From contig NZ_LT963434.1 of NCBI RefSeq assembly GCF_900199515.1, positions 2,058,367-2,090,366 of the forward strand: DNA of 32,000 bases. Direction: 5' to 3'. The notes under the pieces were generated by a model. It saw only the letters and a list, made by a program, of their open reading frames with translations, was not told the DNA's origin and searched no databases. Numbering within the stretch: the stretch's first letter is position 1; each line of letters begins with the position of its first letter. The DNA comes from Massilicoli timonensis (lineage in GTDB: Bacteria > Bacillota_I > Bacilli_A > Erysipelotrichales > Erysipelotrichaceae). This document shows positions 23,127-25,583 of the stretch, one piece after another. Position numbers and translations under genes: made by a program.

Positions 23127-23273
23127 GTGAAAAAAGAAAGGTGGCTGTGGATCGCATTGATCTTATTGGTACTGATGGTCGGCTGTTTGATGGTATATAT
23201 GAGCGATCGATGGGAAGTGGATCAACTCGATATGGAAACGCTTGCAATAAGGAGTTTTTTTCTCTATAATTAA
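23127..23273 (+). CDS. Possible 48-aa small membrane protein or lipoprotein-signal remnant
   Basis: GTG start, VKKERWLWIALILLVLMVGCLMVY... (signal-like, lipobox-like MVGC). Weak SD and below the ORF-track cutoff. Its 3' end overlaps promoter P1. Confidence 0.25.
   Translation: MKKERWLWIALILLVLMVGCLMVYMSDRWEVDQLDMETLAIRSFFLYN
23242..23270 (+). promoter_or_regulatory. Sigma-A-type promoter P1 upstream of the AAGC tract
   Basis: TTGCAA 23242-23247, 17-nt spacer, TATAAT 23265-23270. Confidence 0.6.
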
Positions 23274-23297
23274 AATGTAAAATTTAAGGAAAGGGGC

Positions 23298-23326
23298 TTG
23301 ACAGAGATGAAAAGACGCGGCATAAT
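23298..23326 (+). promoter_or_regulatory. Sigma-A-type promoter P2 immediately upstream of the AAGC tract
   Basis: TTGACA 23298-23303, 17-nt spacer, CATAAT 23321-23326. The tract begins 2 nt after the -10 box. Confidence 0.5.
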
Positions 23327-23396
23327 GAAGCAAGCAAGCAAGCAAGCAAGCAAGCAAGCAAGCAAGCAAGCAAGCAAGCAAGCAAGCAAGACCTAA
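23307..23396 (+). other. Hypothetical 29-codon leader ORF containing the whole AAGC tract
   Basis: ATG 23307 ... TAA 23394-23396 encodes MKRRGIMK(QASK)5T. G-rich SD-like AAGGAAAGGGG at 23286-23296. It would be translated only from P1 transcripts. Confidence 0.25.
23328..23390. repeat. Tetranucleotide simple-sequence repeat (AAGC)15 + AAG
   Basis: 63 nt of perfect AAGC repeats counted directly; equivalently (CAAG)15 at 23331-23390. Confidence 0.98.
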
Positions 23397-23442
23397 GTCT
23401 GCCTAATTTTTCTCATCAAGCGGAGCATGATGCCGATTTTAT

Positions 23443-23486
23443 AGGCGCATCTCGTCCTGTTTTTTATGGGCGAGATGCGCCTTTTG
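23443..23486 (+). terminator. Terminator/attenuator-like hairpin in the surface-protein leader
   Basis: AGGCGCATCTCG (23443-23454) pairs perfectly with CGAGATGCGCCT (23471-23482), followed by TTT. It lies between promoters P1/P2 and the CDS start. Confidence 0.55.
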
Positions 23487-23525
23487 CGTGCAAGAAATAA
23501 CGAGTGTTTTTCAGAAAGGAGAGTA

Positions 23526-25583
23526 ATGATGAAAGTGAAAAAGTGGCTCAGTTTATTTACCGTTATTTGCTTGGGATTTCTTGTCGCCGTATCACCAAAA
23601 AATGTTTTTGCGGCAGGCAATCTGCAAGTACGCAATGGTACAAGTTCTGTTACATTGACACAAACAAAGGCGGATGTTTTTGGGGATGGTACTGTTTCAT
23701 ATGATGCAGATACCAATACGCTTACCTTGAATCACGCCACATTGGCACCAACGACCAATCCATCTATGGCGGCGATTTACGATACAAGAGGGGTAGGATT
23801 AAAGATTGTGGTAAAAGGAGAAAATAAGATTGTCCATGATCAAGCAATCTATATCACACAAAACGGCAATTTGGAAATTAGCGGAGAAGGCAGCCTGCGT
23901 GTTGAGGGAAGCGTTTATGCAATTCAAGGATCTGGAAATATCACAATCGATCAAGCAAAGGTAACTGCCAGCACGACGGGCAGCAGTAATGCCGGTATTC
24001 ATGCCAGTGGATCGATCTTGTTGCGGAACAAGTCGAATGTAAGCTCAAGTGCAGCGAATTATCATGGCATTTACGCTACAAAAGGGATCACGGTTGAAAA
24101 CAGCACACTGATCGCTTCTTCTCGTTGTACAAATGGTGCTTACAGTGGTATAGAAGCATCAAGCGGCGACATTACGATTGCCGATTCCGATGTTCGCGTA
24201 ACGGCGAATATAGGTGGGATCGCAACAGCGATCGGCGATATTACGACGCAAAACAGTAAGGTATCTATTATATCTGGCGATGCTGCGATCAATGGAAAAT
24301 CAGTTGCGATTTCTGGCGGATCGGTTGATGCGACGGCTCTAAATGGAGAGGTAAATGCGATTTATGCGTGGGATGGTCCGATAACGATTAGCGAGGGGGC
24401 AACGGTGATTGCCAATGCGGAAGATGAAAGTGCATTTCCGGCAATTTACGGCAATGGCGGCATTGTGATCAAAAACAGCAAAGTAAGTGCCGTATCCGGA
24501 GGCGATGCCGCAATCTTCTCACCGGAAACGATCATAATTAGTGAGAAAGCAGAGATAGATGCGAATGGCTATTATGCTGCGATCAATGCCAGTGAAGACG
24601 TTATGATCTCTGACAGCGTGGTGAACGCAACCGCAGCAGAAGATGTTGCGATTTATTCAGGAGCAGACGTGGCAATCACAAACAGCGCCGTATATGCAAA
24701 CGGTGTTATAGGTAATGAAGGTATTTTGGCAGATGGCACTGCATCCATTGCTCATTCATGGATCGTAACATCAGGTGCAGAAACATTTGAAGGTGAAATC
24801 GAAAATACAGCATTGTTTCATCAAACCAACGGTACTCTCATCGGCACTTTATCTTTGTCAAATGATGTGGTACTGCCTTTCGGTTCGTCGTTGAACTTTG
24901 CTGATGGTTCCCAACTTACAATCGAAAAGGGTACTACCTTTACCAACAATGGAACAATAACCGGATCCATTCGTATCGTTAACAACGGTACGCTCCTTTG
25001 CAACAGCCATGTGGGAGGCATAGCAGATTGTGTGCAGTGCGCAGTATGCGCCGTCTGCGGCAATGCATATGGAAACGTGGATGTGATGCACCACAAGCAT
25101 TTAGAAAAAGTGAATGCCGCTTCAGCTACCCATTTACAAGAAGGCAATATCACATATTGGCATTGTGATGACTGTGATCGATATTTTACCGATCAAGATG
25201 CAAAAAAGGAAATTACTTATGCCGATACGATTCTTTCAAAACTGCCTCATCATGAAAACTTGGATACATGGGAAGCAAATGAGCAGATGCACTGGCAAGT
25301 CTGCACCTGCAAAGAAAATATAAATGAAGGGAAGCATACCTTTGTATGGGTAATCGATCAGGAAGCGAGCGCAACTGAAAATGGATTGAAGCATGAAGTC
25401 TGTACGGTATGCGGTTATAAAAAAGCAGCTGTAGAAATTTTAGCAACAGGTGAATTGAACGAACAACCAACGACAACGCCTTCTACCGGCGACAACGGCA
25501 GTGCGGCATTGTGGCTTGTTTTGTTACTCGGGTCTGGCATTATTTTACATACGCTTGGTACTGCTGAGAGAACTAAAATATAA
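23526..25583 (+). CDS. Cell-wall-anchored surface protein: signal peptide, ~14 degenerate beta-helix-type repeats, Cys/His-rich module, PSTGD sorting signal
   Basis: SD AGGAG 23517-23521 with ATG 23526/23529. Signal peptide MMKVKKWLSLFTVICLGFLVAVSPKNVFA|AG. About 22-26-aa periodic units of the form xIxAxGxITIxxSxVxA. CxxC/HxH-rich region. C-terminus is PSTGD + hydrophobic helix + RTKI. Confidence 0.8.
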   Translation: MMKVKKWLSLFTVICLGFLVAVSPKNVFAAGNLQVRNGTSSVTLTQTKADVFGDGTVSYDADTNTLTLNHATLAPTTNPSMAAIYDTRGVGLKIVVKGENKIVHDQAIYITQNGNLEISGEGSLRVEGSVYAIQGSGNITIDQAKVTASTTGSSNAGIHASGSILLRNKSNVSSSAANYHGIYATKGITVENSTLIASSRCTNGAYSGIEASSGDITIADSDVRVTANIGGIATAIGDITTQNSKVSIISGDAAINGKSVAISGGSVDATALNGEVNAIYAWDGPITISEGATVIANAEDESAFPAIYGNGGIVIKNSKVSAVSGGDAAIFSPETIIISEKAEIDANGYYAAINASEDVMISDSVVNATAAEDVAIYSGADVAITNSAVYANGVIGNEGILADGTASIAHSWIVTSGAETFEGEIENTALFHQTNGTLIGTLSLSNDVVLPFGSSLNFADGSQLTIEKGTTFTNNGTITGSIRIVNNGTLLCNSHVGGIADCVQCAVCAVCGNAYGNVDVMHHKHLEKVNAASATHLQEGNITYWHCDDCDRYFTDQDAKKEITYADTILSKLPHHENLDTWEANEQMHWQVCTCKENINEGKHTFVWVIDQEASATENGLKHEVCTVCGYKKAAVEILATGELNEQPTTTPSTGDNGSAALWLVLLLGSGIILHTLGTAERTKI

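Follow-up and report, generated by a model that had tools for sequence, protein, structure and literature searches.

The closest described counterparts of the element analysed here are the pil1 and pil3 loci of Streptococcus gallolyticus, in which a (GCAGA)n repeat lies within a leader-peptide gene and the switching mechanism has been proven experimentally (Danne et al. 2014, PMC3894217). A gap of 39 bp (pil1) or 33 bp (pil3) separates the end of the short leader peptide from a terminator, given as -18.7 kcal/mol for pil1, and out-of-frame unit numbers lengthen the peptide into or past the hairpin, upon which transcription rises (PMC3894217). Mutation of the ATG or the addition of stops abolishes the effect, and deletion of the terminator locks expression on (PMC3894217). 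Our subject is an (AAGC)n simple sequence repeat (SSR) that precedes a surface-protein gene in a 32-kb stretch of DNA from Massilicoli timonensis, a human-gut isolate of the Erysipelotrichaceae (contig NZ_LT963434.1; the whole stretch is called the window below, and positions are counted from its first nucleotide). Overall, the locus is probably a phase-variation switch in which an SSR is combined with ribosome-mediated transcription attenuation, which we take as the best explanation because the geometry of the window is closely similar to that of pil1/pil3.

Other described systems resemble the locus in part. The lav gene of Haemophilus influenzae, with GCAA(n), and the autB gene of Neisseria meningitidis, with AAGC(n), use the same unit (AAGC is a circular permutation of GCAA) and also control a surface protein through slipped-strand changes of frame (PMC9022572, PMC5118866). 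Their tract lies inside the regulated coding sequence (CDS), where a frame change truncates the protein, whereas the tract in the window ends 135 nt upstream of the CDS with a terminator in between. Since all three frames, moreover, are stopped at or before position 23500 and thus ahead of the start codon, the locus is not a case of intragenic SSR phase variation. The AGAT(n) tract of Moraxella catarrhalis uspA2 is likewise a tetranucleotide repeat located about 130 bp before the open reading frame (ORF) of a surface protein and acts at the transcript level, but its output is graded with unit number and the described mechanism involves neither a leader ORF nor a terminator (PMC7302503). Similar to the trp and his leaders, the position of the ribosome on a leader ORF would decide whether the downstream terminator forms; those leaders, however, sense charged tRNA via regulatory codons and use an antiterminator helix, while in the window the reading frame would set the position of the ribosome. 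In Clostridioides difficile, the gene of the cell-wall protein CwpV (work ascribed to Emerson and colleagues, 2009) is said to be switched stochastically ON and OFF through an intrinsic terminator that forms in the leader, downstream of a constitutive promoter and ahead of the ORF. Unlike the locus in the window, the cwpV switch reportedly relies on a recombinase-driven DNA inversion and involves no SSR and no leader peptide.

Anatomy of the AAGC leader

The features of the locus are collected in Table 1. Tandem Repeats Finder placed an array at 23328-23390 with a period of 4, 15.8 copies, 100% matches and a score of 126, in agreement with the (AAGC)15+AAG tract that the original prediction had described, and the tract is the sole tetranucleotide array in the window. 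A consensus scan recovered exactly the two promoter sites that had been proposed, P1 and P2. Two sites in 1.5 kb are not above chance (2.9 expected from shuffles), and the significance of P1 and P2 therefore comes from their conservation in related loci (see below) and not from the site count. The P2 -35 hexamer lies within the spacer between the Shine-Dalgarno sequence (SD) and the ATG of the leader ORF, its -10 hexamer ends 1 nt ahead of the tract, and its predicted start falls inside the first tract units, about 56 bp from that of P1; we infer that two polymerases could not occupy both promoters simultaneously. Because ATG 23307 is located between the -35 and -10 of P2, transcripts from P2 cannot encode the leader peptide, and of the two promoters that had been suggested to read into the leader only P1 could serve the proposed mechanism. 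The tract lies 3' of the -10 of both promoters, neither within a promoter spacer nor upstream of a promoter.

The 29-codon ORF that had been read from ATG 23307 was confirmed, including its stop. As in loci of the pil1 class, a short ORF with its own SD and ATG thus encloses a non-triplet SSR 5' of a surface-protein gene. Resizing the tract in silico reproduced exactly the three frame outcomes that had been worked out by hand: with n = 15, 12 or 9 units the leader ORF ends at 23394-23396, with n = 14, 11, 8 or 5 it ends at 23404-23406, and with n = 16, 13, 10 or 7 it stays open through the hairpin to the TAA at 23498-23500. With 46 and 36 nt to the hairpin, both early stops exceed the minimum of 28 nt that marks the pil1 class, and the third frame passes beyond the hairpin, again as in that class; the two distances are close to the 33-39 nt of pil1/pil3.

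Between the leader stop and the surface-protein gene lies an intrinsic-terminator-like hairpin, at the place that the terminator occupies in pil1-class loci. Its stem contains 15 pairs (14 Watson-Crick and one G-U) and is stronger than the 12 bp first claimed, while the T run behind it, only four T (23482-23485) followed by GCGTG, is short, which is why a simple terminator scan missed the hairpin. Folding of the 71-nt stretch 23430-23500, as the original prediction had proposed, gave -34 kcal/mol (z = -6.3), and none of 200 shuffled sequences folded equally well. The core hairpin (-27.9 kcal/mol) is comparable in strength to the terminators of pil1 and pil3 (-18.7 and -28.2 kcal/mol). No promoter was evident, by inspection of the sequence or in the consensus scan, within the 40 nt that separate hairpin and CDS, so the surface-protein gene would depend on read-through.

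Table 1 Features of the AAGC locus and of a second repeat-containing promoter in the window.
Feature	Position	Strand	Basis or remark
Variable cassette (promoters, leader, terminator, surface-protein gene)	23240-25879	+	BLASTN of contig L019 against the window
Promoter P1, TTGCAA-17-TATAAT	23242-23270	+	Consensus scan, 10/12; predicted start ~23277, 5' of the leader ORF
Leader-ORF Shine-Dalgarno AAGGAAAGGGG	23286-23296	+	Read from sequence; 10 nt before ATG 23307
Promoter-like P2, TTGACA-17-CATAAT	23298-23326	+	Consensus scan, 11/12; perfect -35
Leader ORF, short form, 29 codons, MKRRGIMK(QASK)5T	23307-23396	+	ORF list and in silico resizing
(AAGC)15+AAG simple sequence repeat	23328-23390	.	Hypermutable element, no mismatches
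TAA closing the leader ORF at n mod 3 = 0	23394-23396	+	46 nt 5' of hairpin; predicted OFF/low
Pyrimidine-rich box GTCTGCCTAATTTTTC, then TCAAGC	23397-23421	+	TCAAGC complementary to GCTTGA of the SD/-35 region
TAA closing the leader ORF at n mod 3 = 2	23404-23406	+	36 nt 5' of hairpin; predicted OFF/low
Intrinsic-terminator-like hairpin with tail TTTTGCGTG (putative attenuator)	23443-23490; stem 23443-23482	+	Folding
TAA closing the long leader ORF, n mod 3 = 1	23498-23500	+	15 nt past hairpin, 25 nt before ATG 23526; predicted ON
Surface-protein gene Shine-Dalgarno AGAAAGGAGAG	23513-23523	+	Read from sequence
Surface-protein CDS, 685 amino acids (aa) (684 aa from ATG 23529)	23526-25583	+	WP_102269676.1, 'hypothetical protein [Massilicoli timonensis]'
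(AT)10.5 tract as promoter spacer, TTGACA-17-TATACT (11/12)	Promoter 16015-16043; tract 16021-16041		Sequence
Lipoprotein gene, 202 aa, lipobox VVGC, downstream of the (AT)n promoter	16079-16687		

Overall, the window shares with pil1/pil3 the order of a promoter (predicted in the window), a ribosome-binding site and ATG, a short SSR-rich ORF, an intrinsic terminator and a Gram-positive surface-structure gene. In both, unit numbers that are out of frame carry the ORF into or beyond the hairpin, isolates differ in unit number and a divergent regulator gene adjoins. The differences are equally clear: the unit is AAGC (4 nt) instead of GCAGA (5 nt) with no sequence homology, the hosts are Erysipelotrichia or Clostridia instead of Streptococcus, and the cargo is a single non-pilus surface protein. 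Two of the three frames are predicted to be OFF and one ON in the window, whereas in pil1 the in-frame class is low and the out-of-frame classes are high. The window module further contains two elements that are not described for pil1, namely the embedded promoter-like P2 and the conserved pyrimidine box, and, unlike pil1, it belongs to a widespread family in many taxa whose function is predicted here. The relation to pil1 appears to be one of analogy and not of homology, as far as repeat unit and flanks can be compared by the published description. The layout, which had been called unusual, is therefore less novel than thought, as the S. gallolyticus pil1/pil3 precedent exists (PMC3894217).

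Unit-number variation and conservation of the module

Unit number was compared in 15 independent M. timonensis contigs, the window and 14 contigs from gut metagenomes, after removal of duplicates; their flanks were 98-100% identical. In line with the strain comparison that the original prediction had proposed, unit number varied from 5 to 15. The counts were 5 (three contigs), 7 (one), 8 (two), 9 (two), 12 (four), about 13 (two) and 15 (one, the window); they derive from short-read assemblies, in which the 55-nt tracts with n = 13 may be k-mer-limited lower bounds, and several contigs terminate within the tract. All three frame classes were populated, with seven short, five intermediate and three long forms. 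The long leader ORF was annotated by gene callers in two of the contigs, as 53 aa in L001 (n = 7) and 61 aa in L029 (n = 13). The first tract unit was AAGG in some strains.

Two MEGAHIT contigs (L015, 3796-3862; L022, 2333-2400) were inter-species chimeras joined exactly via a collapsed 27-nt AAGC tract. Their upstream DNA had a GC content of 52% and 60%, while the downstream halves were 100% M. timonensis. Similar to the window, the foreign halves of both chimeras end in AAAGGGGCTTGACA-nAnATG, about 25 nt and AAGC repeats. These two tract-joined contigs indicate that AAGC modules cause misassembly in gut metagenomes.

A metagenome scan with the pattern GGGGCTTGACA-N15-40-(AAGC)3 retrieved 47 further loci from human-gut, termite-gut and other samples, which correspond to about 21-27 diverged sequence types. 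They follow a common order, namely P1, a purine-rich SD, TTGACA, ATG, about 7-9 codons, (AAGC)n, TAA or TAG, the box, the terminator, a second SD and the gene. A sigma-A-type equivalent of P1 was found in most of the 27 types, ending 15-44 nt upstream of the GGGGC/GGAGC motif with which the SD closes, with a mean score of 8.7 compared to 7.0 in shuffles (Fisher p 1e-9) and a TG-extended -10 in 13 types. In every family member, the ATG is preceded by a purine-rich RRAAAGGGG. Among 34 distinct spacers, the ATG followed TTGACA by 1-4 nt in 28 (about 6% expected), and the frame of the ATG was free of stops up to the tract in 33, whereas stops were present in the +1 frame of 27 and in the +2 frame of 8. 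A stop was located within 8 nt past the tract end in 20 of the 21 types, compared to 6.2 expected from dinucleotide shuffles. The hairpin starts about 32-59 nt past the tract end and is followed by a conserved T run, and in the consensus hairpin of 15 family members 16 of the 17 pairs showed compensatory changes, that is, the terminator stem covaries. The unit number ranges from 3 to 28 across the family and differs between contigs with near-identical flanks. No AAGC tract of at least 4 units was found outside the TTGACA context in any locus examined. Judged from their conservation, the SD, the ATG, the open frame, the immediate stop and the terminator match the expectation for an attenuator that is coupled to the translation of a leader ORF.

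P2 was conserved as well. A -10-like hexamer (A2, T6) was found 16-18 nt from TTGACA in 26 of 27 types (5.9 expected); the distance from its end to the tract is 1-8 nt, except in the aberrant L077 (16 nt).

The box between tract and hairpin has the family consensus TCTGCCC-TTTTT (from the alignment). In only 8 of 19 types, 6 nt or more at 13-26 nt past the tract were Watson-Crick complementary to GGGGCTTGACAAA (combined p 2e-4). The test on duplex energies between the SD/-35/ATG region and the post-tract box was weak: the energies are mostly accounted for by purine-versus-pyrimidine composition (Fisher p 4e-4 across the family), and the result for the window itself was not significant (z = +0.47). 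Boxes with a (T)GTCAAGC or AAGCCCC element complementary to GGGGCTTGACAAA were observed in the window and in L050, L053, L060, L061, L073 and L082. With these mixed statistics, the pairing could clamp the ribosome-binding site of the leader and leave the tract in the loop; we retain the long-range SD-box pairing as an unexplained observation and keep it outside the mechanism. Antiterminator pairing was looked for in the window leader and not found, and a trp-style antiterminator between the box and the 5' arm of the terminator was rejected, as both are pyrimidine-rich and not complementary.

The protein encoded behind the leader in the window contains a signal peptide, beta-helix-like repeats and a Cys-rich region, and its C-terminus carries, in this order, a TPSTG-like motif, a hydrophobic segment and a basic tail; searches of Pfam and NCBIfam returned no family for it. 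In the BLASTN comparison, the homology of L019 to the window ends at 23239 and picks up again at 25880, and the cassette in between is an insertion/deletion polymorphism that is present in some M. timonensis strains only. Many strains carry an alternative allele of about 450 bp (L019 4440-4890) with a 107-aa multi-pass membrane ORF. The left junction of the cassette precedes the P1 -35 by 2 nt and falls in the 3' end region of an ORF for a 52-aa transmembrane protein (23115-23273).

The closest homologue of the surface protein (42% identity) was found via protein homology in L086, a locus from a metagenome-assembled genome of a different Firmicute, which carries a complete module with the canonical SD AAAGGAGC, TTGACA, ATG, (AAGC)15.5, TAA, a CTGCC box and a terminator. 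Five other homologues (L087, L088 and L098-L100) have no module and no tract, and the gene in L088 has a plain aaaaaGGCTTGACA-17-TATAAT promoter. A search of genome contigs with the surface protein returned two distant partial homologues, both without a tract. The presence of the module in L086 and its absence from the five other homologues indicate that it is not tied to this protein family and is combined with different cargo. Across the family, the cargo is mostly composed of surface proteins with a signal peptide, with InlB B-repeat, FIVAR, GLUG and LRR domains or an LPXTG anchor, and includes a solute-binding (SBP) lipoprotein. Such proteins are the usual cargo of contingency loci.

Several single loci deserve mention. 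The L050-type module precedes a TetR regulator gene, possibly a phase-variable regulator, which is followed by a gene for a 928-aa Ig-domain protein. In L050 (2830-11038) and in L042 (8037-11376), module and surface gene adjoin genes for a MobA/MobL relaxase, a helix-turn-helix protein and a tyrosine integrase, which suggests that in these two family types the module is carried on integrative mobilisable elements. An AAGT unit within the tract of L040 (5568-5627, minus strand) creates an in-frame TAA, and this copy of the switch may be locked off or decaying. AAGC tracts on viral contigs of IMG/VR were rejected as members of the family because they lie within phage genes and are classical intragenic SSRs. 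Five of these contigs (L089, L092, L093, L095 and L096) carry 6-14 AAGC units in the N-terminal coding region of phage genes, with DNA methyltransferase motifs (DIPY, SPPY) encoded downstream of the tract in L089 and L093; these genes look like classical intragenic phase-variable methyltransferases of gut viromes.

Proposed frame-dependent attenuation and its rivals

In the mechanism that we favour, transcripts from P1 would carry the leader ORF together with the entire (AAGC)n tract, and slipped-strand mispairing would add or remove 4-nt units, by which the ORF would cycle through the three frames. With n mod 3 = 0 (n = 15 in the window) or 2, the ribosome would stop at TAA 23394 or TAA 23404, the terminator (23443-23485) would form behind RNA polymerase and most transcripts would end before the gene (OFF/low). 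With n mod 3 = 1, the ribosome would cross both arms of the hairpin up to TAA 23498 and block its formation, and transcription would proceed into the gene of the 685-aa surface protein (ON). The window allele is accordingly predicted to be OFF/low and alleles with n mod 3 = 1 to be ON. All sequence elements are present in the window, unit number varies among strains and the module is conserved in a broad family. A frame switch across the terminator, as set out in the original prediction, is thus the explanation best supported by the variation, the conservation, the long-ORF calls and the pil1/pil3 precedent, while the ON/OFF assignment and the switching rate are inferred, as are the use of the promoters, leader translation and termination at the hairpin.

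Several points weigh against this mechanism. The conservation of P2 is as strong as that of any element of the module and is neither needed nor explained by the model, and transcripts from P2, with their start in the tract, would have no ATG and would not be translated at all. With four T behind the stem, the efficiency of termination at the window hairpin is uncertain. A frame that is open into the hairpin was found in 21 of 21 types compared to 19.9 expected from shuffles; because this is indistinguishable from chance, the feature offers no support and was dropped as evidence. Ribosome-polymerase coupling is reportedly loose in some Firmicutes, though the streptococcal precedent works. Finally, the unit counts derive from short-read assemblies with the limits given above, and two contigs are chimeric at the tract. 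As for P2, it could act as a decoy making an always-terminated RNA, as the source of a small (AAGC)n RNA, as a pause or roadblock that gives the ribosome time to reach the polymerase, or as the real promoter of an untranslated leader.

The last of these roles leads to the main rival, which we consider rather unlikely: an SSR in an untranslated 5' leader, with the main start at P2 in the tract, where the length of the tract and not its frame would tune expression in a graded manner. Such tuning could act through promoter escape, RNA stability, a repeat-binding protein, Rho loading or terminator efficiency. The perfect -35 of P2 and its -10-like hexamer at fixed spacing in 26 of 27 family types speak for this reading, as does the unit number of 3-28 across the family with no obvious preference of frame, and AGAT(n) ahead of M. 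catarrhalis uspA2 is a known case of a tetranucleotide tract that exerts graded control from an upstream position (PMC7302503). The tract-less relative L088 is driven by a plain GGCTTGACA-17-TATAAT, and GGCTTGACA may therefore be the native promoter. Length-tuning, however, leaves unexplained why an ATG follows TTGACA by 1-4 nt with a stop-free frame in 33 of 34 spacers, why a stop lies directly 3' of the tract in 20 of 21 types (6.2 expected), and why L086 has a canonical SD (AAAGGAGC) and P1 is conserved. We know of no repeat-binding factor, and count this against the reading as well. The comparison of the leader to Rfam likewise speaks against it: the whole window, searched against Rfam 15 at the gathering score, showed no family in the leader, and at E up to 10 the leader gave chance-level hits only (E = 3.1 and 7.5).

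Improbable in our view is that the leader forms an independent gene for a small RNA or peptide, transcribed from P2 (or P1) with the hairpin as its terminator, the surface-protein gene being controlled separately; in a variant of this explanation, the hairpin terminates the upstream 52-aa ORF. The unit of promoter, tract, box and terminator is indeed compact (about 160-220 nt) with a strong terminator and U tail, and the leader is at times annotated by gene callers as a small ORF of its own. Against this, every family member with downstream sequence has a same-strand gene with its own SD mostly about 25-50 nt, and up to about 150 nt, past the terminator, and the gap of only 40 nt in the window contains no promoter match. 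In M. timonensis, module and gene are gained and lost jointly as one cassette, and the distance between terminator and tract is fixed regardless of the upstream sequence. Least probable of all is a neutral microsatellite, hypermutable and functionless, whose changes in length have no phenotype. Length variation alone is no proof of function and all three frames are found in nature, but a perfect 63-nt tract would decay without selection, and this repeat unit recurs at the same position of a conserved multi-element module, ahead of surface proteins, in dozens of loci that are diverged in sequence and stem from human and termite guts.

Beyond frame-dependent attenuation as such, we tentatively entertain, as a doubtful possibility, a joint reading in which the locus is a horizontally spread 'AAGC switch cassette' with two mutually exclusive tandem promoters, an anti-SD-like box and an integrated output. 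It would be an undescribed element of many gut Firmicutes of human and termite hosts that controls diverse surface proteins and at least one TetR regulator. P1 would give rise to the translatable leader, and P2, starting in the repeat, to an untranslatable and always-terminated decoy or small RNA, while the anti-SD-like box would re-pair with the SD/-35 region. The output would then integrate repeat frame, repeat length (which would set the time window in which ribosomes can load ahead of synthesis of the box) and competition between the promoters. In promoters, box and integrated output, such a cassette would exceed the pil1 paradigm in elaboration.

A second candidate repeat switch in the window and implications

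The window contains a second candidate switch, an (AT)n tract that forms the spacer of a promoter upstream of a lipoprotein gene (Table 1). In seven other M. timonensis contigs, the tract had 7.5, 7.5, 8.5, 9.5, 10.5, 11.5 and 12.5 units. Such changes would alter the spacing between -35 and -10, as in classical promoter-spacer phase variation. With this second strain-variable SSR in the window, M. timonensis appears to use SSR contingency loci for surface components. At its end, the window cuts through a 16S rRNA gene, the 5' end of which lies at 31884-32000.

AAGC leader modules of gut Firmicutes were not described in any paper that our literature searches turned up, and on M. timonensis itself the searches returned the species description only. 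The attenuation switch is not new in kind, while the breadth of the family and the embedded promoter may be new. Work on phase variation in the gut microbiota has concentrated on DNA inversion, in Bacteroides and a few Firmicutes, and SSR switches are regarded as a speciality of small-genome pathogens. To our knowledge, the leader-peptide variant of attenuation is documented in one streptococcal species. If the proposed mechanism is true, this leader-attenuation logic also works in a commensal Erysipelotrichaceae species, and a recognisable module occurs in dozens of loci of uncultured gut Clostridia and termite-gut bacteria, ahead of adhesin-like proteins. Phase-variable surface antigens could then be recognised in metagenomes by a simple sequence signature, and the mechanism would account for assemblies that break or turn chimeric at AAGC loci. 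It would also predict heterogeneity of surface display among strains and among cells, which short-read consensus genomes hide.

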